Source of the DNA: an uncultured Desulfobacter sp.
GTDB taxonomy: Bacteria > Desulfobacterota > Desulfobacteria > Desulfobacterales > Desulfobacteraceae
Assembly (NCBI GenBank): GCA_963665095.1
Contig: OY762069.1
Span: 6,336,001 to 6,400,000, forward strand
Reading direction: 5' to 3'
Length of the DNA stretch: 64,000 bases
Shown here: piece after piece, positions 25,807-34,915 of the stretch
Layout: each line of letters begins with the position of its first letter
How positions within the stretch are numbered: the stretch's first letter is position 1
Translations under genes and position numbers: made by a program
Notes under the pieces: generated by a model
The model's input: only the letters and a program-made list of their open reading frames with translations
What the model was told of the DNA's origin: nothing
Databases searched by the model: none

Positions 25807-25847
25807 CTTCAAATCAGCGGTTCAAAGGCAGAACCGCTGATTTGAAG
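25807..25847 (+). terminator. terminator-like hairpin
   Basis: CTTCAAATCAGCGGTTC-AAAGGCA-GAACCGCTGATTTGAAG, 17-bp arms, T-run shortly after. Confidence 0.7.
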
Positions 25848-25918: not shown

Positions 25919-27472
25919 ATGATAGAGTGCAGCAATGCAGACGTTATCAACAGTTCAAGAGCCCGATGCAGATCGTTAGGAATCAATTTAAAGGCAAAAC
26001 AGGCACCGATTGTATTTCAAAAAAAATCCAATTATTTAAATCTGCCGCGCATACGGCTGATTATAGAAGCGGCGAGCGCTTGCCTGTGCAGCCTGGAGCA
26101 CCGGAACGATCAATTTGATCATGCCATCACCGTGACTGATGAAAAGGGAACAATCATTTACATAAAAGGCACGGAAAACATGCTTGCGGAGGTGCGGACA
26201 TATGGTCTGGTTGTCGGTGGGCTCTGGGATGAACGCTCCATGGGCAATAATGCCATGGGAACCGCATTGGAACTTAACAGTCCCGTCTCCTTTGTCGGTG
26301 ATGAGCATGTTGTTGAAATTGCGAAAAATTATGGGTGTTCTGCCGCGCCGTTTTATGAATCCGATTCAGGTGAGCTGATGGGGTGTGTGAATATCAGCTG
26401 CAGGGCAAAAGATTTTCATACCAGCACAATGCTTGCCGTAATGGCGATAAGTGATTCCCTGCAGCAACGGCTTAAGCCCTCAATTCAGACATGTTTTGAT
26501 CCACAACGGCTTTCAGGTGATCGTTTAACCGGTACCCAGAGAAACTGCTGTGCTAAATATGTCAACAGATCACGGCAAATGCGGAAAATTTTTTCAAAGG
26601 CGCAGCGCGCGGCTCTTTTTGATTCAACAAAGATGATTTTAGGAGAGACCGGTGTTGGTAAGGAAGTTCTGGCAAAATTTATCCATGAAAGCAGTCCCCG
26701 TCGGGAACAGAAGTTTATTGCCGTCAATTGCGGTGCGATACCCCATGAATTGGTGGAAAGTGAGCTGTTCGGATATAATGGCGGCTCATTCACTGGGGCA
26801 AAGCGGGATGGCAGATCCGGGAAATTTGAGCGGGCAAACGGCGGAACGATCTTTCTGGATGAAATAGGCGAGATGCCGTATAACGCCCAGTCTAAACTGC
26901 TGCGGATTATTGAGGATAAAAAGTTAACCCGGCTGGGCGCCAACCGTCCCATACCTTTAGACGTACAAATCATCACCTCCACAAACCGCGACCTTAAACG
27001 TATGATCCAAGAAAAACTGTTCAGGGAAGACTTGTATTATAGGCTGAAAGTGGCGCAGTTTTGTATTCCTCCGTTAAGGGAAAGACCAGATGATATACCG
27101 ATACTGGTTCAGTATTTCCTTGAGACCATCGGCGTGAAACTCGGAATGCCAGTAAAAACCTTTTCACCGGAGGCAATGAAAGCCCTTGTTTCATATCATT
27201 GGCCGGGGAATATTCGGGAGCTGAAGCATATTATAGAAGAAGCCTGCATATTTTCCCAAAGTAACATAATTGATGTCGGGGAGCTGAATGAAGATATCCC
27301 CATATTGCAGTCTCACCCTCCGTTAGATGAAAAAGAGAGAATTATTGCTGAAATTGACCGGTGTAAGGGCAATAAGTCAAAGGCGGCTAAAAAATTAAAT
27401 ATTTCACGGGTGACGTTATATAGAAAAATGTCAAAATATGGTCTTTCGATCAAAAAAGGAAATGAATTGTAA
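25919..27472 (+). CDS. sigma-54-dependent activator, AcoR/AcxR-like (GAF + AAA+ + Fis HTH)
   Basis: GAF W.E..MGNNAMGTAL..EH..CSAAP; GETGVGKE, ESELFG..GSFTGA, FLDEIGE, FREDLYYRL, WPGNIREL; HTH NKSKAAKKLNISRVTLYRK. Confidence 0.9.
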   Translation: MIECSNADVINSSRARCRSLGINLKAKQAPIVFQKKSNYLNLPRIRLIIEAASACLCSLEHRNDQFDHAITVTDEKGTIIYIKGTENMLAEVRTYGLVVGGLWDERSMGNNAMGTALELNSPVSFVGDEHVVEIAKNYGCSAAPFYESDSGELMGCVNISCRAKDFHTSTMLAVMAISDSLQQRLKPSIQTCFDPQRLSGDRLTGTQRNCCAKYVNRSRQMRKIFSKAQRAALFDSTKMILGETGVGKEVLAKFIHESSPRREQKFIAVNCGAIPHELVESELFGYNGGSFTGAKRDGRSGKFERANGGTIFLDEIGEMPYNAQSKLLRIIEDKKLTRLGANRPIPLDVQIITSTNRDLKRMIQEKLFREDLYYRLKVAQFCIPPLRERPDDIPILVQYFLETIGVKLGMPVKTFSPEAMKALVSYHWPGNIRELKHIIEEACIFSQSNIIDVGELNEDIPILQSHPPLDEKERIIAEIDRCKGNKSKAAKKLNISRVTLYRKMSKYGLSIKKGNEL

Positions 27473-27504
27473 ACCGTCATCTGTAAACCGTTATTATATA
27501 GCGC

Positions 27505-27592
27505 CTGAACAAGAACCCCATGTTTGGTGTTTGGACGCAAGGTTGCCCAGATGCAGGGCGAAAGCAAAGCTTTAACCGCAAGCGTACTTCAG
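27505..27592. repeat. half copy of the palindromic intergenic repeat at 50388-50535
   Basis: About 85% identical by eye to 50388-50474; ends at the apex (GTACTTCAG) of the full element. Confidence 0.85.
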
Positions 27593-27854
27593 AATGCCGC
27601 GCATGTGTTTAACTCTCCATCAGCGTATCAAAAGACAAACAGCCCACTGTGATTATCCTCAAGTGTAACATGTGTAAAGTTCAGTGTTTCGCCGGGATGT
27701 AACATTTCGTGCATACCAGGGTCTGTTTTTGATTTTTTTTCATTTTATAATTTCAAATTAAAAAATAATAACCATTGGATATATGAAAATATAAGCTATT
27801 AAATCAATGGGATATGGTTATAAATAATCCGGGGATAAGGATGGGATAAAAAAG

Positions 27855-27870
27855 TGGCACAGATCATGTA
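27855..27870 (+). promoter_or_regulatory. sigma-54 promoter candidate
   Basis: TGGCAC-AGATC-ATGTA (good -24, variant -12) between the activator and the carboxylase genes; TGTAACA motifs at ~27664 and ~27698 and an AT-rich spacer lie upstream. Confidence 0.5.
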
Positions 27871-27993
27871 GTGTTGGACCTAATGCCGGTGGCCACGGTA
27901 AAGCCGCATTTATATTCGGAAATATTCTGACAGGTGATGCGTGCAGGTGTTCGTAAACTTCCAACCAAATAGAATGAGGAGGTAAGTTTCGTT

Positions 27994-29445
27994 ATGGTTA
28001 CTGATTTTAAAAAGCCCTTGGGCGGCACATTGCAGTTGGTGGATGAAACACTGCGTGATGGTACTCAAAGCCTGTGGGGCATGATGATGAGCTACCACAT
28101 GATGGAGCCGGTCATCAATGAAATGGCCCAGGCCGGCTATTATTCCGTCAATCTTCCGGTGCATGTGGCCCAGCCTTTGATCAGCGTTCGTTTCTTTAAA
28201 GAAGACCCCCGGTATCTGTTCCAGATGTTCAAAGACAAACTGGACAAACTGGACACGAAAACCAAGATTATCATAGTTTCCATGGGCATGGCCCTGGACA
28301 TCACGGGAACGGTTGAGAACACAACCATGGTAAGACTGGTCACCAGGCAACTGAAACAATGGCTGCCCAACATCAGTCAGTATCAGTTGATGTGCGGGGT
28401 AGGCGACGAGATTAAAAACACTTTTCCGATTCTGGTGCCAATGCTTCGCTCCCTGGAGATGGAGCCGATCCCCTATCTGGCCATCGGTCACAGTCCCCGT
28501 CATACTGATGAATTTTACGCCAGCAGGGTAAAACATCTTGTTGATACATATAAGCCCATAAGTATCTGCCTTAAGGATGTTGACGGATTGCTGGTTTCGG
28601 ATCGTCTGCGGACACTTATTCCTGCCGTACAGAAAGTCGCCGGGAATACCCCCCTTGAACTCCATATGCACGGCATGAACGGCCAGAATACGTATAATGC
28701 CGTGGTGGCCATGCAGATGGGTATCCGGAAATTTACCACCTGCTGCCCGCCCCTGGCCTACGGCTCTTCCCATCCGTCGGTTTTCAATCTGATCCATAAT
28801 GCGGAGCAGCTTGGCATAAACCACACCATGGACAGGGAAAAGCTTAATATCATAGAGGAACGTCTCACGAAAATTGGCTCAGCCTTTGGGCACCCTGTGG
28901 ATAATCATCCCATGCCCTTTGATCTGTTTTGCTACAAACACCAGGTGCCCGGAGGCGTGATCTCCAACCTCACCACACAGTTGACCCAACTGGGGATTAT
29001 GGACAAGCTGCAGGAGGTGCTGGAGGAAATTCCTCGTATTCTGGTTGATCTGGGTCATCCTGTTATGATTACCCCGTTCTCTCAGTATATTGTCGCCCAG
29101 GCGGTTCTGAATGTGCAGATAGGCCGCTGGGAACAGTGCCTTGACACCATGGTTGAGTTTGCCGCCGGTATTTTCGGGGTTGAAGAGGCAGGCGTTCCTT
29201 ATATGGATCAGAATCTGCGGGATAAACTTTTAAGCCTTCCCCAGGCCAAAAAGATTAAAGAAAAAGCAGATAACCTCATGGAGTACATCCATTCGGAACC
29301 CTCCGTGGAAGAGTGCAAGAAAAGATTTGGTCTATCCCCCAATGATTCAGATGAAGATCTTGTCATGAGAGTCCTTCTGCATGGCGGCGAAGAGATGAAG
29401 CACATCACCCCTGGTGGACCTGATGCGTATAAAAAATATTTATAG
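27994..29445 (+). CDS. biotin-dependent carboxyltransferase (PycB/OadA/5S-like, divergent)
   Basis: ETLRDGTQSL, KDVDG, HMH, HQVPGGVISNL and MITPFSQ motifs. Confidence 0.85.
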   Translation: MVTDFKKPLGGTLQLVDETLRDGTQSLWGMMMSYHMMEPVINEMAQAGYYSVNLPVHVAQPLISVRFFKEDPRYLFQMFKDKLDKLDTKTKIIIVSMGMALDITGTVENTTMVRLVTRQLKQWLPNISQYQLMCGVGDEIKNTFPILVPMLRSLEMEPIPYLAIGHSPRHTDEFYASRVKHLVDTYKPISICLKDVDGLLVSDRLRTLIPAVQKVAGNTPLELHMHGMNGQNTYNAVVAMQMGIRKFTTCCPPLAYGSSHPSVFNLIHNAEQLGINHTMDREKLNIIEERLTKIGSAFGHPVDNHPMPFDLFCYKHQVPGGVISNLTTQLTQLGIMDKLQEVLEEIPRILVDLGHPVMITPFSQYIVAQAVLNVQIGRWEQCLDTMVEFAAGIFGVEEAGVPYMDQNLRDKLLSLPQAKKIKEKADNLMEYIHSEPSVEECKKRFGLSPNDSDEDLVMRVLLHGGEEMKHITPGGPDAYKKYL

Positions 29446-29474
29446 ACAGAAACACAACAAGGAGATCAACGGTT

Positions 29475-29741
29475 ATGAGTGAAGTCAACGAAGACGGTTT
29501 AGTGCCCATTGAAGCGTCGGTAAGCAGTGTTTTTTATCGCAGGCCCAGTCCTGGCGAACCCCCTTTTGTTGAGGAAGGCGATAAAGTTGATGAAGATACC
29601 ATCATCTGTTTACTGGAGATAATGAAGTGTTTTCGTTCCATCAGCGCCGGTGTCAAAGGGACAGTAGAAAAGGTCCTGGTGGAGAGCGGGGTCCTGGTAC
29701 AGAAAGGAGAGCCGGTAATGCTTATCAGGCCGGCAGACTAA
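29475..29741 (+). CDS. biotin carboxyl carrier protein
   Basis: FYRRPSPGEPPFVEEGD and biotinylation motif EIMKC. Confidence 0.9.
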   Translation: MSEVNEDGLVPIEASVSSVFYRRPSPGEPPFVEEGDKVDEDTIICLLEIMKCFRSISAGVKGTVEKVLVESGVLVQKGEPVMLIRPAD

Positions 29742-29760
29742 CCCCGAAAGCTAAAAGGTG

Positions 29761-29794
29761 TGAACTGATGGCCACGAACACTGGCCATCAGTTC
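29761..29794 (+). other. intra-operon stem-loop
   Basis: TGAACTGATGGCCA-CGAACAC-TGGCCATCAGTTCA, 14-bp perfect arms, no U-tract. Confidence 0.65.
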
Positions 29795-29865
29795 ATCAGA
29801 AAAACTGACATTAAGTTAAGGTTGGATGCGAAATTTCTTTTAGAAATGACGAGGTGAATAATTTA

Positions 29866-31230
29866 ATGAAAAAAAGAAAAATACTTATTGCCAACAGGGG
29901 TGAGATTGCCGTCCGCATTATCAAAGCCTGTAAGGAAATTGGCATTCAGACGGTGTTGGTTGTTTCAGAAGCTGATACCCAGAGTATGGGAGCTAAGCTT
30001 GCGGACGAGGTTGTCTGTATCGGGCCGCCCCAGTTTCATTTGAGTTATCTTGATATACAAAAAATTATAACAACGGCTCTGGAGACCGGTGCCGATGCCA
30101 TTCATCCAGGCTATGGCTTCCTTGCTGAAAACCCTGAACTGCCTGAAGCCTGTGAAAAAAACGGGATCATCTTTATTGGACCCAACGCCAGGACAATGAG
30201 GCAACTGGGGGATAAAATAAGTGCAAGGGACCTGGCCTTTAAAAGCAAGGTTCCCATGGCGGTGGGCAGTGGTGGTCTTCACAGTTTCCAGGATGTGGAA
30301 GCACAGGTCGAAAAGTTGGGTTTCCCTGTGATATTTAAAGCCGCTGCCGGTGGCGGCGGGCGTGGAATGCGTGTTGTCTTGGAGCCAAAAGATTTAAAAC
30401 CTGCCTTTGATATGGCGTCAAATGAAGCGTTGCAGGCGTTTGGTGATGCCACGCTATTTGTGGAGCGGTATGTCCAGAATGCCAGGCATGTGGAGGCACA
30501 GGTGATTGCAGATAATTTTGGGAAAGTCATCCATGTGGGCTTACGAGACTGTTCTCCCCAGCGGCATCACCAGAAAGTCATTGAAGAAGCATATCCCCAT
30601 GACCTGCCTGATGATTTAAGGAACAGCATCCTGGAATCGGCCGTAACGCTGATTTCCAGTATCGGCTACAATAATGCAGGTACTGTGGAGTTTCTGGTCG
30701 ATAAGGATCGCAATGAATTTTACTTTATGGAAGTCAACACCCGCATCCAGGTGGAACACCCTGTTACCGAGGAGATAACTGGTATTGACCTGGTAAAAGA
30801 GCAGATTCAGGTGGCCTTCGGGGACCCTCTTTCACTGAACCAGGAGGACGTGAAATTCAAGGGGCATGCCATTGAGTGCCGGATAACGGCAGAAGATACC
30901 AAAGATGATTTTATGCCCTGCCCCGGGATCATAGAAAAATTCGTTGTGCCTGACACAGATACAATACGGGTGGACACCCACTGCTATGAGGGGTACACCA
31001 TCAGCCCGTACTATGACTCTTTAATTGCCAAGCTCATTGTTAAAGGCGATACCCGGGAAGATGCACTGGAAAATATGAAAATCGCATTAAAGGGGATTGA
31101 GATAGAAGGCGTGGAGACGAATATACCTTTCCTGAATTTTATCATTGACCAGCCTGATTTTATTTCAGGCGATATCCATATTAAATGGATAGAAAACAAA
31201 GTGTTACCCAGTTTTCTGGCGTTAAACTAA
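29866..31230 (+). CDS. biotin carboxylase (AccC-like)
   Basis: ILIANRGEIAVR, HPGYGFLAEN, GGGGRGM, RDCS.QR, EVNTRIQVEHPVTE. Confidence 0.93.
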   Translation: MKKRKILIANRGEIAVRIIKACKEIGIQTVLVVSEADTQSMGAKLADEVVCIGPPQFHLSYLDIQKIITTALETGADAIHPGYGFLAENPELPEACEKNGIIFIGPNARTMRQLGDKISARDLAFKSKVPMAVGSGGLHSFQDVEAQVEKLGFPVIFKAAAGGGGRGMRVVLEPKDLKPAFDMASNEALQAFGDATLFVERYVQNARHVEAQVIADNFGKVIHVGLRDCSPQRHHQKVIEEAYPHDLPDDLRNSILESAVTLISSIGYNNAGTVEFLVDKDRNEFYFMEVNTRIQVEHPVTEEITGIDLVKEQIQVAFGDPLSLNQEDVKFKGHAIECRITAEDTKDDFMPCPGIIEKFVVPDTDTIRVDTHCYEGYTISPYYDSLIAKLIVKGDTREDALENMKIALKGIEIEGVETNIPFLNFIIDQPDFISGDIHIKWIENKVLPSFLALN

Positions 31231-31263
31231 AAATTTCCAAACAGGGTTCAGGCGGGGTGTCTT

Positions 31264-32028
31264 ATGGCTAAAGGGGTGAAGCGCCGTTACCGGCAGATTG
31301 AAAAAATTGAAGCAAAAGAAAATCACGGCACATACGGGCAATGGCGAAAGAATTTTTGCATCGAATATCAGGCGCTTCTTGCCCGGTCCCGGGATAATAC
31401 CTACAACGCGCTTCTGAAAAGGCTTGCTTTGAAAGGCGAGAAAATAACCTGCCACAAGGGGTGTACCCATTGCTGCTTTCACTATGTGGCGGTGCCGTTG
31501 GCACATGGTATGGTCATTGTGGATTACTTATATAAACAACGGCAGAAACTAAAACAGTTTATTCAGAGCTATGATAAATGGCGTCATCAAGGTCTGAATA
31601 TTTCAAACAGGATCGACCGGGAAAGAGCCCGGGCCTTTTCACTGTCCATGCCGGTTAACGACATAATCGCAGGTACCAGGCCCTTGTCGGCCCAGTACTT
31701 TGAAGCGAATATTACCTGCCCCTTTCTTGTAAATCAAACTTGTCTGATTTATAATATTCGACCGTTTCCCTGCTCAGGGCAATACTCCGTGACGCCTCCT
31801 GACTTGTGTGCCCCTGACATAGCAGATAAAGCGGTTATATATCAACTTGTACATGACGATGAAGATCTGATTAAATTCCTGGAACTGGCAGGGGCTGACC
31901 TTATGGTTAATGAAATGACGCTGCCAATAATGGTATACAGACTTCTTACCCAAGGGGCGTCATCTGTTCTGGATTCGTTAGATGTTCAAAACCGCGTTGG
32001 TTCATCCCGGAAAGTTGCGGCGTATTAG
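31264..32028 (+). CDS. YkgJ/UPF0153 Cys-cluster (Zn/Fe-chelating) protein
   Basis: CHKGCTHCC and CPFL...CLIYNIRPFPC. Confidence 0.8.
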   Translation: MAKGVKRRYRQIEKIEAKENHGTYGQWRKNFCIEYQALLARSRDNTYNALLKRLALKGEKITCHKGCTHCCFHYVAVPLAHGMVIVDYLYKQRQKLKQFIQSYDKWRHQGLNISNRIDRERARAFSLSMPVNDIIAGTRPLSAQYFEANITCPFLVNQTCLIYNIRPFPCSGQYSVTPPDLCAPDIADKAVIYQLVHDDEDLIKFLELAGADLMVNEMTLPIMVYRLLTQGASSVLDSLDVQNRVGSSRKVAAY

Positions 32029-32160
32029 AGGGCTTAAGGTATCCCGGCTCCCTTTCTTTTAATCTTAAGTTCGGTTTGTCCTTCTGGTGTGCCTACGGGA
32101 AAAATTTTAGATCCGCGTTAAGAGTATTTAAACAACACTGAAATGTAAAGGAGCTGAAGC

Positions 32161-33072
32161 ATGTCTAAAAAAAGAATTATAAACTGTGCCATCACAGGAT
32201 CAATTCATACCCCGAGTATGTCCCAATATCTTCCCTGGAAACCGCAGGATATTGCCCGGCAGGCAATTGATGCGGGCAATGCTGGCGCGGCTGCAGTGCA
32301 TATTCATGCCCGGAATCCTGAAAATGGCTCCCCAACCCCGGATCTGGACATTATGAGGCAGATTGTGGAAACCATTCGCGCTGAATCCGATGTACTGCTT
32401 TGCATAACAACCGGTGGCGGCGTGGGCATGACTGTGGAACAACGGGTGGCTGTTGTGCCGGAATTTAAGCCGGAATTGTCATCAATGAATGCGGGAAGCA
32501 TCAATTTCGGCCTGTTTCCTTTGGCAAAGACAATAAAAAACCCCACCTTTGAATGGGAGAAAGCCTATCTGGAAGCATCCTATGATTTTATCTTTAACAA
32601 TACCTTCAAGGCCATGGAAGGCATGTGCACCATCATGCGGGAAAACGGTACAAAACCGGAACTGGAGGTTTATGACACAGGTCACCTGTATAATATAAAA
32701 TATCTTTTAAAGCTTGGCCTTCTTGAAGAACCCATTTATCTGCAGTTTATTACAGGCGTACTGGGCGGGATCGGCGCTTCTGTGCATGACCTTGTAAATC
32801 TTCATGATACTGCGGAGCGTCTCTTTGGAAAGGGTAATTACAACTGGTCCGCTAACTCGGCAGGGCGGATGGAATTTCCGCTTTGTACAACCAATTTGTT
32901 TCTTGGCGGCCATGTCAGGGTCGGCATGGAAGACAATCTTTTCCTCTCTAAAGGGGTGCCCGCCAAGAGCAATGCGCAATTGGTGGAAAAGATGGTGCGC
33001 ATTATGGGTGAATTTGATTTCGAGCCGGCCTCCCCGGATGAGGCCAGGGAAATTTTGAAATTGAGAAAATGA
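32161..33072 (+). CDS. beta-keto acid cleavage enzyme (BKACE/Kce, DUF849)
   Basis: CAITGSIHTP, HIHAR, TTGGG, PELEVYD, HVRVGMEDN. Confidence 0.9.
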   Translation: MSKKRIINCAITGSIHTPSMSQYLPWKPQDIARQAIDAGNAGAAAVHIHARNPENGSPTPDLDIMRQIVETIRAESDVLLCITTGGGVGMTVEQRVAVVPEFKPELSSMNAGSINFGLFPLAKTIKNPTFEWEKAYLEASYDFIFNNTFKAMEGMCTIMRENGTKPELEVYDTGHLYNIKYLLKLGLLEEPIYLQFITGVLGGIGASVHDLVNLHDTAERLFGKGNYNWSANSAGRMEFPLCTTNLFLGGHVRVGMEDNLFLSKGVPAKSNAQLVEKMVRIMGEFDFEPASPDEAREILKLRK

Positions 33073-33104
33073 GAGCGCTAATCAATTAAAACAAGGAGGC
33101 CAGG

Positions 33105-34253
33105 GTGGATTTTGACCTAACCAAAGAGCAGGAAATGGTTCGCAAGGAAGTCCGGAAATTTGCCCGGAAGGAAATTGCGCCCATTGCGGCAGAGCTTGAC
33201 GATAAAGAGGAATTTTCTGTAGAGTTGACCAAAAAGATGGGTGACATCGGTCTTTTCGGTATGTTTGTCTCTGATGAGTATGGCGGCCAGGCCATGGACT
33301 ATATCTCTTATATCATTGCCGTTGAAGAGGTGGCGCGTATAGACGGATCACAGGCCGCAACCATTGCAGCGGGCAACTCACTGGGGATCGGCCCCCTCTT
33401 TTACTTTGGTACAGAGGCGCAAAAGAAAAAATATCTGCCCAGGCTTTGTACCGGAGAGGGACTGTGGGGATTTGGACTGACAGAGCCCACGGCCGGCTCC
33501 GATGCCGGCGGATCCAAAACAACCGCAGTGCTGGACGGGGATGAATGGGTGATCAACGGGTCGAAAATATTTATCACCAATGCGGCCTGTGAATTGACCA
33601 TGGGAGTCACGGTTCAGTGCATCACAGGAACCCGGGACAACGGGAAACCCGAATATACCTGTATTATTGTTGAACCTGGCACTCCGGGATTCAAGGCCGT
33701 TCCCATGCATAAAAAAATGATGTGGCGTGCCTCCAATACGGCAGAGCTCTATTTTGACAATGTCCGGGTGCCCAAGGAAAACATTCTGGGTAAAAAAGGG
33801 GACGGATTTCGTCAGATGCTGTCCACCCTGGACGGGGGACGGCTTTCCATCGGCGCCATGGGACTTGGCGGGGCACAGGGGGCCTTTGACATCGCCCTGA
33901 AATATGCGAAAGAAAGGCATCAGTTCAACCAGCCCATTTCCAAATTCCAGGCCAACGCCTTTAAGCTGTCTGACTGTGCCATGGAGATCGAATGTGCCAG
34001 AAACCTTTTGTACAAGGCATGCTGGCTTAAATCCAATCATCGCCCCTTTGGTAAGGAAGCAGCCATGGGCAAGCTTTATTGTTCCGAACTCATGGGCCGG
34101 GTGGCTAACCATGCCGTACAGATACACGGCGGCTACGGGCTCATGAAAGAGTATCATGTGGAACGGTTTTACCGGGACCAGAAGCTCCTTGATATCGGGG
34201 AGGGCACTTCAGAGATCCAGAGGCTGGTTATTTCAAGATACATTGGGTGTTAA
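33105..34253 (+). CDS. acyl-CoA dehydrogenase (short/branched chain type)
   Basis: LTEPTAGSD, NGSKIFITN, GGYG, IGEGTSEIQR; AAGGAGG before the GTG start. Confidence 0.92.
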   Translation: MDFDLTKEQEMVRKEVRKFARKEIAPIAAELDDKEEFSVELTKKMGDIGLFGMFVSDEYGGQAMDYISYIIAVEEVARIDGSQAATIAAGNSLGIGPLFYFGTEAQKKKYLPRLCTGEGLWGFGLTEPTAGSDAGGSKTTAVLDGDEWVINGSKIFITNAACELTMGVTVQCITGTRDNGKPEYTCIIVEPGTPGFKAVPMHKKMMWRASNTAELYFDNVRVPKENILGKKGDGFRQMLSTLDGGRLSIGAMGLGGAQGAFDIALKYAKERHQFNQPISKFQANAFKLSDCAMEIECARNLLYKACWLKSNHRPFGKEAAMGKLYCSELMGRVANHAVQIHGGYGLMKEYHVERFYRDQKLLDIGEGTSEIQRLVISRYIGC

Positions 34254-34279
34254 TCATCCTTCAATAATTAGGAGATACC

Positions 34280-34915
34280 ATGGAAAAAGAGGAAAAATTC
34301 CCCTACATCAATGCGGACTATTTTGAAGGCCTCACCGGAGACATCCAGGACGGGGACTCCGGAACGCTGGATGACGTCGGTGCCCGGATTAAACACCTTA
34401 GAGAGGAGAGGGGGCTTACCCTGCAGTCGCTTTCTGATTTAACCGGATTTGACGTGTCCCGGCTTGAGGCCATTGAAAGTGGAGAATTCAAACCCCAGCT
34501 TGGCATGATTATGAAACTGTCCAAGGCCCTTGACCTTGCAGTGGGCAGACTGGTGTCTGGGGTGGGAACAAGCCTTTACGCCATTACCCGGAAAAACGAG
34601 AGAAAACCCATTGCAAGATCTGCCTCCAAAATCGGCAAAAAACATGAGTATGCCTATATGAGTCTGGCCCCGGAAGTTCAGGGCAGGCACATGGAGGCAT
34701 TAATCGTCCAGTTGGAACAAAGCCAGGAAAAAGAAATTTCCGTTCACAACGGCGAAGAATTTATTTTTGTCCTTAATGGAGAGGTTAATCTGACCATTGC
34801 AAAGGAGTCCTATGATCTTGAACCGGGCGACAGCGCCTATTATTTATCAACCACCCCCCACTACATCACTGCAAAAACAGAAAAAGCCACCATACTTGCA
34901 GTGCTGTATGAATAG
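34280..34915 (+). CDS. XRE-family HTH regulator with cupin domain
   Basis: IKHLREERGLTL HTH; HNGEEFIFVL..GDSAY..PH cupin. Confidence 0.88.
   Translation: MEKEEKFPYINADYFEGLTGDIQDGDSGTLDDVGARIKHLREERGLTLQSLSDLTGFDVSRLEAIESGEFKPQLGMIMKLSKALDLAVGRLVSGVGTSLYAITRKNERKPIARSASKIGKKHEYAYMSLAPEVQGRHMEALIVQLEQSQEKEISVHNGEEFIFVLNGEVNLTIAKESYDLEPGDSAYYLSTTPHYITAKTEKATILAVLYE

Follow-up and report, generated by a model that had tools for sequence, protein, structure and literature searches.

Gene Content of the Locus

The 64,000-nucleotide stretch of DNA analyzed here (the window; positions 6,336,001 to 6,400,000 of contig OY762069.1, assembly GCA_963665095.1) comes from an uncultured Desulfobacter sp. 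whose genome (G000) is a single 6.9 Mb contig in which dsrA scores above its cut-off. Between window positions 25919 and 34915 lie seven open reading frames (ORFs) followed by an XRE-cupin regulator gene, all on the + strand with intact frames and separated, in order, by gaps of 521, 29, 112, 33, 132, 32, and 26 nt, the 132-nt gap falling between ykgJ and kce (Table 1). Pfam and NCBIfam identify the seven products, in order, as a sigma-54 activator, a carboxyltransferase (CT; PYC_OADA and HMGL-like), a BCCP (biotin carboxyl carrier protein; biotin-lipoyl), a biotin carboxylase (BC), a weak CxxCxxCC match, an enzyme that cleaves beta-keto acids (BKACE), and an acyl-CoA dehydrogenase (ACD). The original prediction, made from the letters of the window alone, had claimed this gene set for a pathway that carboxylates a ketone and cleaves the product; every ORF is indeed present, co-oriented, and uninterrupted, and the families agree, with qualifications for the activator, the YkgJ-like protein, and the sigma-54 site. 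On the strength of gene families, motifs, and linkage, we put at about 0.5 the probability that the locus, acquired or kept in a patchy fashion, is a module under sigma-54 control for catabolizing a methyl ketone that is neutral and not phenolic.

Table 1. Features in and around the candidate ketone carboxylation locus, in window coordinates.
Feature	Position	Strand	Remark
Probable terminator and left boundary: perfect 17-bp hairpin, 100% complementary	25807..25847	+	separates the activator from the old-yellow-enzyme gene upstream
Sigma-54 enhancer-binding activator (GAF-like N-terminus, AAA+ with GSFTGA, Fis HTH)	25919..27472	+	
Dispersed repeat of ~95 bp, outside the pathway	27495..27593	.	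45 genomic matches of 60 nt or more; also in genus genomes
Probable enhancer, two TGTAACA sites 34 nt apart	27664..27704	.	TGT[AT]ACA clusters upstream of homologous CTs
Candidate sigma-54 -24/-12 promoter, TGGCACAG-ATCATGTA, GT at -12	27855..27870	+	equivalent position in 5/21 homologous regions
Stand-alone pyruvate-carboxylase-type TIM-barrel CT	27994..29445	+	
Minimal 88-aa BCCP, EIMKC biotinylation motif	29475..29741	+	
15-bp hairpin without U-tract, between BCCP and BC	29760..29796	+	
BC	29854..31230	+	NF006367 above cut-off
YkgJ/CxxCxxCC-like Cys-cluster protein	31264..32028	+	
BKACE (kce), long TGSIHTP type	32161..33072	+	PF05853 334 bits
ACD (acd)	33105..34253	+	88-90% orthologue of first gene of genus operon
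XRE-cupin regulator	34280..34915	+	68-75% to genus orthologues; same native operon as acd

The Carboxyltransferase Lacks the Pyruvate-Site Motifs

The window CT has the fold of transcarboxylase 5S, PycB, and OadA (model pLDDT 84; Foldseek TM 0.74-0.80) and is 23-25% identical to these canonical proteins. It scores far under every NCBIfam cut-off (at best 185.6 against 402), and no solved structure nearer to it than 5S/PycB was found by sequence or by fold. Among 28 aligned CT homologues, R21, D22, Q25, H224, H226, and T360 are invariant and K194 is nearly so. A few homologues have ED in place of D-x-K. In an alignment to transcarboxylase 5S, NLPVHVAQPL stands opposite ECWGGATYD and VSMG opposite LLRG; the window CT lacks both the GGATFD and the LLRG motif, the arginine being replaced (about M97), and carries W28. 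This pattern extends over 115 aligned CTs: GGA[TS]F and LLR[GA] occur together in 16/16 canonical rows, while LLR[GA] occurs in 0/99 divergent rows. RDxxQxxW is found in all 99 divergent rows and no canonical one, and a TP motif is likewise common to 99/99, including the stand-ins for known ketone carboxylases introduced below. We take the LLRG arginine to bind the carboxylate of pyruvate, a role for which our literature search found no source. The loss of the pyruvate-site motifs, the retention of the catalytic core, and the presence of a separate canonical PycB/5S-like copy at C1:6679339 argue together for a substrate that would be an enolizable carbonyl with no alpha-carboxylate. By motif, the CT is thus not a pyruvate or oxaloacetate enzyme, as originally predicted.

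Three biotin-dependent aryl-methyl-ketone carboxylases, each of three subunits, are natural references for such an enzyme, namely HpeCBA, AcvCDE, and XccABC. Their published CT sequences (XccA, AcvE, Hpe) were represented by synteny stand-ins from our survey, whose loci are numbered L: L109 (Xcc-type, with a sigma-54 regulator, ligase, UPF0261, BCCP, BC, CT, HAD, two short-chain dehydrogenases/reductases (SDRs), and thiolase, matching the gene names in PMC4630880), L123 (acvABCDEF order), and L091/L121; no Hpe stand-in was identified. A quick IQ-TREE analysis of 60 of the 115 CT rows (SH-aLRT support only, midpoint-rooted, no approximately unbiased test) assigns the window CT to a clade of 18 members with 100% support, which lies within a wider set of unstudied CTs and apart from both the canonical clade and the Xcc/Acv stand-ins. 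Identity between this clade and the stand-ins is only 26-32%. Kinship to the Xcc-type clade was not recovered; the close relationship to XccA that had been suggested gives way to only 28% identity to the Xcc-type stand-in. The associated BC is 70-82% identical to BCs beside close CT homologues and ~49-50% identical to Xcc/Acv-type stand-in BCs. We consider it probable, with good confidence, that CT-BCCP-BC is a ketone carboxylase.

Neighborhoods of Homologous Carboxyltransferases

A pattern scan of GTDB confirmed 336 stretches, with 72 loci examined, and a metagenome scan contributed 5; L136-L140 are duplicates of other loci in the survey. The 24 loci termed close here carry a CT at least 52% identical to that of the window and form 13 groups at 85%; several are short. 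An acetoacetate-CoA-ligase-family gene is present in two of the 24 (L030, L034), and the L030 order is SDR-CT-BCCP-BC-ligase-thiolase. The two ligases are 51-54% identical to ligases of Xcc/Acv-type clusters versus 43-44% to the housekeeping ligase. The SDRs of L030 and L033 have an (R)-alcohol dehydrogenase model as best match, below cut-off, and acetophenone-carboxylase-like (Apc-like) genes occur in one close locus, L033. These neighborhoods, with their alcohol-dehydrogenase-like SDRs, ligase and thiolase, and Apc-like genes, fit the predicted conversion of a ketone to a beta-keto acid. The strongest reason to propose a free beta-keto acid as product is that ligase plus thiolase on the one hand and BKACE on the other would be alternative means of using it.

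BKACE adjoins CT in four of the 24 close loci (L017, L024, L105, L106) and in 9/77 loci overall, and is absent from both ligase-carrying ones. L106 repeats the window order, activator-CT-BCCP-BC-ykgJ-kce-acd, with non-orthologous kce (51%) and acd (39%). In L105, bioB, birA, and bioY stand ahead of kce, and in L024, kce-acd-hbd-thiolase-activator lies upstream of CT. NetSyn describes no carboxylase-linked BKACE cluster in its section 14. The predicted link between CT and BKACE thus recurs but is not obligate, as 20/24 close loci show no BKACE, some on short contigs.

Both genes are patchily distributed. No orthologue of the window CT was found in 24 same-genus genomes, and kce likewise has none there, the best genus BKACE being 40% identical. 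CT matches at 1e-45 occur in 9/401 genomes of the order, one other exceeding 50% identity, while a 66-69% copy is present in 8/301 genomes of the Smithella order (Syntrophales). The cluster has GC and GC3 values of 0.45-0.49 against 0.487 for the genome, no more than a weak foreign signal.

Three further arrangements seen in the survey deserve mention. L033:596-8558 holds a complete acetophenone-carboxylase-like (hydantoinase-type) cluster directly upstream of biotin CT-BCCP-BC, so that two carboxylase types adjoin. Large expansions of divergent CTs, with tandem triplets and one shared BC, occur in G043 (L047-L049, L053, L057, L061, L066, L069), G320, L036, L043, and L046, suggesting that one BC serves many substrate-specific CTs. 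Lastly, L089, L111, L114, L115, and L116, in Rhodococcus plasmids and betaproteobacterial genomes, combine a phosphoenolpyruvate-utilizing protein, an AMP-binding enzyme, a PPDK-like protein, BCCP, BC, CT, and thiolase, another unstudied branch that probably acts on a phosphorylated substrate.

The BKACE

The product of kce exceeds the Pfam cut-off for PF05853 with H47, H49, E169, R253, E257, and D258 intact. It thus has, as BKACE15 (PDB 8RIO/8RIP) does, the Zn ligands, the catalytic Glu169, Arg253, and Asp258, and the TGSIHTP N-terminus; the corresponding BKACE15 residues include E171 and R254 (PMC11961710). The structures nearest to it are 3LOT, 3E02, 3E49, and 8RIO. BKACE15 accepts beta-ketopentanoate, beta-ketohexanoate, and 3,5-dioxohexanoate (PMC11961710), and the BKACE of the bisphenol plasmids described below is of a different type, 31% identical to kce. 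The kce type therefore favors a non-phenolic R group without fixing it, and R is more likely to be hydrophobic, for instance aliphatic, than to be hydroxyaryl.

Two more BKACE genes, of other types (33-35% identity), are present in G000 at C1:6401804-6402625 and 559417-560226. One of them lies just past the end of the window, where its neighbors are a tripartite transporter and a 3-hydroxyacyl-CoA dehydrogenase-like gene. BKACE is encoded within open frames of ~680-700 aa, a possible domain fusion, in L132:4475-6544 and in several genomes of the Syntrophales order.

Regulatory Features

The activator had been assigned to the AcoR/AcxR GAF type. AAA+ and HTH domains were identified in it, which upholds that part; Pfam gives no GAF match, and the only sign of a GAF domain is that the N-terminus aligns with the region that Pfam calls GAF in activators adjoining homologous CTs. 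The activator shares 48-51% identity with the CT-adjacent activators of L018 and L032 over their common part, and is ~130 aa shorter than its homologues, central residues being absent.

The candidate sigma-54 promoter site, TGGCACAGATCATGTA at 27855, has GT instead of GC at -12, and a consensus scan alone is at chance level (75 matches versus 77 expected), but the position is conserved: TGGCACAG is found at -139 in the window, and 5/21 homologous CT upstream regions have it between -136 and -139. Each of these five has TGT[AT]ACA sites upstream, and TetR-associated loci have neither element; the five are close relatives of one another and so not independent. In the genome, only two such pairs of sites fall within 45 nt, and only the one upstream of CT (27664 and 27698) precedes a sigma-54 site, a unique arrangement. 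TGT[AT]ACA clusters stand upstream of CT in L018, L024, L104, L105, L107, L032, and L106, relative to which the window enhancer is rearranged. In L105 and L106, kce has a sigma-54 site of its own, which follows TGT[AT]ACA sites at a distance of ~135 nt as in the CT promoters, and this shared layout suggests co-regulation of CT and kce. No + strand terminators were called in the intergenic gaps of 27994-34253; for sigma-70 sites and terminators, the scan counts (18 versus 14.4 and 14 versus 11.3, respectively) fell within those of shuffled sequence. The hairpin between BCCP and BC is possibly a site of mRNA stability or processing.

Accessory and Neighboring Genes

The YkgJ-like protein scores 21.8 against Pfam PF03692, under the cut-off of 23, and has an ESM Atlas cluster support of 0.97; CxxxCxxCC and CPFL..C..Y..RP..C are invariant among its homologues. 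A survey of its co-occurrence had been proposed, and the gene does recur beside CT, in 11/24 close loci and 18/77 overall. Its probable role is to assist the carboxylase, as an accessory factor or in metal handling. In the window genome, nothing scored above the bioB cut-off, and birA and bioY-like genes are present near C1:2.97 Mb, a combination that possibly means reliance on biotin uptake.

The original prediction cautioned that kce-acd-XRE could be a separate core locus. This holds for acd and XRE but not for kce, as DNA similarity to genus relatives begins at ~33090, just ahead of acd, leaving kce outside the genus core and acd-XRE inside it. Three genus relatives have the order acd-ech-CT-hmgL-XRE-acetoacetate ligase (aacs), an operon of the leucine/isovalerate type to judge from its domain content, and by synteny the window ACD would be isovaleryl-CoA-dehydrogenase-like. 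In G000 this operon is split over three places, with ech-CT-hmgL at C1:2514195-2517779, the acetoacetate-CoA ligase at C1:4256355-4258301, and acd-XRE at window 33105-34915, which left acd-XRE behind kce. It follows that kce shares the patchy distribution of the carboxylase, whereas acd-XRE is native and rearranged. The relocated ech-CT-hmgL now follow ORFs that have the appearance of CoA-transferases.

The old-yellow-enzyme gene upstream of the activator was considered as a pathway member and rejected: the perfect hairpin lies between them, its genus orthologues are elsewhere, and it is beside none of the 24 close CTs. An old-yellow-enzyme gene does adjoin nine distant CTs. For the repeat at 27495-27593, shorter matches occur in many genus genomes.

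Proposed Pathway and Alternatives

In the pathway that we propose, BC would, as its family does, carboxylate biotin on BCCP using HCO3- and one ATP. The metal-containing CT would then enolize R-CO-CH3 at the conserved Arg/Gln/metal site, with the conserved Thr relaying a proton, to yield R-CO-CH2-COO-. Going by family and linkage, the Zn-dependent BKACE would convert this product and acetyl-CoA to R-CO-CoA and acetoacetate. The acyl-CoA could enter beta-oxidation, possibly via the adjacent native ACD, and the acetoacetate could be recycled by the separate acetoacetate-CoA ligase of the genome and thiolase. The YkgJ-like protein would probably serve as an accessory factor. Cleavage by BKACE had been presented as a saving, bypassing ligase and thiolase; it would save no energy by itself, because the acetoacetate co-product would still need activation and thiolysis, and its advantage would instead be substrate generality. 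It is speculative, and we think improbable, that the displaced isovaleryl-CoA-dehydrogenase-like gene was drafted in to act on a branched acyl-CoA, such as the product of 4-methyl-2-pentanone.

Whether ketone carboxylation is coupled to this particular BKACE is an evenly balanced question, and several observations weigh against it. The closest relatives of kce (71-77%; 8 matches in 7/301 Syntrophales-order genomes) are in acyl-CoA/beta-oxidation clusters without CT, among acyl-CoA dehydrogenases, ligases, and electron-transfer flavoprotein genes; only one of those seven genomes has a close CT, and this is on another contig. L105 and L106, with kce genes that are 89% identical, represent one event. 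This BKACE type is present in 110/301 Syntrophales-order genomes, common enough for chance adjacency in catabolic islands. Of the Syntrophales-order genomes with a close CT, 7/8 also carry it, but among the matches listed, only one of the eight has kce within ~10 kb. In the window, the 132-nt ykgJ-kce gap has no enhancer/sigma-54 promoter of the kind seen in L105 and L106, and kce would thus depend on read-through. Unactivated aliphatic ketones are also harder to enolize than the aryl ketones of HpeCBA, and the deletion in the activator and the GT at -12 could signal decay. Since BKACE is common in the Smithella order, is seldom near CT among the matches listed, and has its nearest relatives living without CT, it is best regarded as one optional downstream module.

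The foremost alternative is a serious one, to which we nevertheless give clearly less credence than to the pathway above: the enzyme is a ketone carboxylase, but kce and acd are unrelated neighbors, and the beta-keto acid is activated by an acetoacetate-CoA or other CoA ligase and then thiolysed, as in Xcc/Hpe. The BKACE-free majority of close loci, the CT-free surroundings of the closest kce relatives, the displaced native origin of acd-XRE, the ligase and thiolase of L030 and L034, and the acetoacetate-CoA ligase of the genome itself are all as this would predict. It accounts poorly for the repetition of the order CT-BCCP-BC-ykgJ-kce-acd in L106 with different kce and acd alleles, for the promoter layout shared by CT and kce in L105 and L106, and for a kce as patchy in the genus as CT.

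Somewhat less probable again is that the CT acts on another carbonyl. Candidates are aldehydes, ketones that are cyclic or derived from steroids, an alpha-keto acid held by a remodeled pocket, and 1,3-diketones; acetylacetone, for instance, would yield 3,5-dioxohexanoate if carboxylated at its terminus. Pocket-lining loops do vary widely over the CT family, one Desulfobacterales genome carries 10 divergent CT paralogues, which implies many substrates, and homologues have been named automatically as oxaloacetate decarboxylase or 2-oxoglutarate carboxylase. Among NCBIfam models, kce is best matched by NF053538, a 3,5-dioxohexanoate:acetyl-CoA acetone transferase, but scores 400.8, under the equivalog cut-off of 430, and differs from that enzyme to this extent. 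An alpha-keto acid is disfavored by the loss in 99/99 divergent rows of the arginine that presumably holds the substrate carboxylate, and the cluster has no OadB/OadG-like or 12S-like gene. Finally, a silent or decaying acquired island would explain the ~130 missing central residues of the activator, the GT at -12, the rearranged enhancer, and the lack of a bioB above cut-off, but is very improbable given intact frames throughout, conserved catalytic residues, a retained enhancer pair and -24 box, and the birA and bioY-like genes.

Comparison with Known Systems

The proposed pathway of ketone carboxylation followed by BKACE cleavage has precedents. We take VceA of Sphingobium SYK-6 to be a BKACE-family protein. 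Purified HpeCBA of Rhodococcus rhodochrous GD02 carboxylates 4-phospho-acetophenone and 4-phospho-acetovanillone with ~one ATP converted to ADP, and is inactive on unphosphorylated ketones (PMC9618137). AcvCDE of Sphingobium SYK-6 is like HpeCBA and, with VceA and VceB, forms a working route in Pseudomonas, VceA being acetyl-CoA-dependent and converting a beta-keto acid to an aroyl-CoA (bioRxiv 2022.04.28.489975; 10.64898/2026.08.18.745639); VceA is classed as a CoA ligase in PMC12624787. The original suggestion that the form of the route is new does not stand, as HpeCBA has been purified and AcvCDE with VceA already leads from ketone to acyl-CoA. The SYK-6 route shares with ours the carboxylation of a ketone and a subsequent acetyl-CoA-dependent step from free beta-keto acid to acyl-CoA, but it is aerobic and acts on a phenolic substrate, and vceAB is reported to be unlinked to acv and non-essential in SYK-6.

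Like the Hpe, Acv, and Xcc systems, the window locus has a separate BCCP and BC with a pyruvate-carboxylase-type CT, and the stand-ins share with it RDxxQxxW and the loss of GGATF/LLRG; the Aromatoleum Xcc cluster is also sigma-54-controlled (PMC4630880). Unlike them, it has a minimal BCCP (88 aa), a YkgJ-like gene that follows, and the order CT-BCCP-BC, and it would not need the phosphorylated substrate of HpeCBA (PMC9618137). The window CT is 26-29% identical to L109, L123, and L091, which are 51-59% identical to each other; published Hpe/Acv/Xcc CTs are reported as 42-55% identical and form one clade. In tblastn searches at 1e-8 of the genome and the 77 loci with L123 AcvA/B/F-like queries, which did not extend to a monomeric MarK-type kinase, phenol kinase (HpeHI/AcvAB) and HAD phosphatase gave 0 matches, and no UPF0261 partner of the CT was found in that set. 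The low identity, the separate clade, and the absence of a kinase or HAD partner place the window CT outside the Hpe/Acv/Xcc group, although the carboxylase is predicted to work like its members. In L109, L110, L113, L118, L091, and L143, a UPF0261 (Tm-1-like) gene stands just before BCCP with no two-subunit phenol kinase nearby; in these Xcc-type clusters it may stand in for the kinase or aid the carboxylase.

4-Hydroxyacetophenone is a bisphenol A intermediate, and two plasmids, of Sphingobium yanoikuyae YC-JY1 and Sphingomonas bisphenolicum AO1 (L091:3552-10321 and L121:2579-9348; NZ_CP047221.1 and NZ_AP018819.1), carry a thioesterase-BKACE-UPF0261-BCCP-BC-CT-HAD cluster, a candidate native 4-hydroxyacetophenone route by carboxylation and BKACE. 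Our literature search found no description of it.

Relative to PycB, OadA, and 5S, the window CT keeps the fold and the RD..Q, K, HxH, and Thr catalytic set but is missing the ExWGGATFD and LLR[GA] motifs of those proteins, which form their own clade. In anaerobe genomes, the labels oxaloacetate decarboxylase alpha and pyruvate carboxylase B are probably wrong for many proteins, which have no pyruvate-site motifs. Earlier work has already caught sight of kinase-free homologues, in that kinase and carboxylase homologues are reported to cluster in only 52/836 cases (PMC13101465); 10.1101/2024.03.22.586352 and PMC11575180 added nothing further on novelty. A literature search whose scope left out most subscription papers and the supplements (e.g., PNAS Fig. 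S5, hpe homologue clusters, which may include the clade) found no description of this CT clade, and none for sulfate reducers or Smithella of a ketone carboxylase dependent on biotin. What is new here is thus a kinase-free clade in a sulfate reducer, the chemistry and two-step logic having precedent in aerobes, among them lignin degraders. A tentative extension, which we hold to be rather unlikely as a whole, is that the window CT stands for a large unstudied radiation of kinase-independent biotin ketone carboxylases in energy-limited anaerobes (sulfate reducers, Smithella/Syntrophales), acting on unactivated aliphatic methyl ketones with one ATP rather than two, a YkgJ-like accessory protein, and a co-regulated, substrate-general BKACE.

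The physiological problem is one that the window organism, with its dsrA, shares with other sulfate reducers. Desulfococcus biacutus and Desulfosarcina cetonica instead activate ketones by thiamine diphosphate (TDP)-dependent formylation, and carboxylation at a cost of two ATP is stated to be unfeasible for sulfate reducers (PMC7888143). If our reading is right, a one-ATP biotin enzyme that dispenses with phosphorylation would be a second solution to ketone activation in sulfate reducers and would provide a simple CO2-fixing catalyst of C-C bond formation for ketones.

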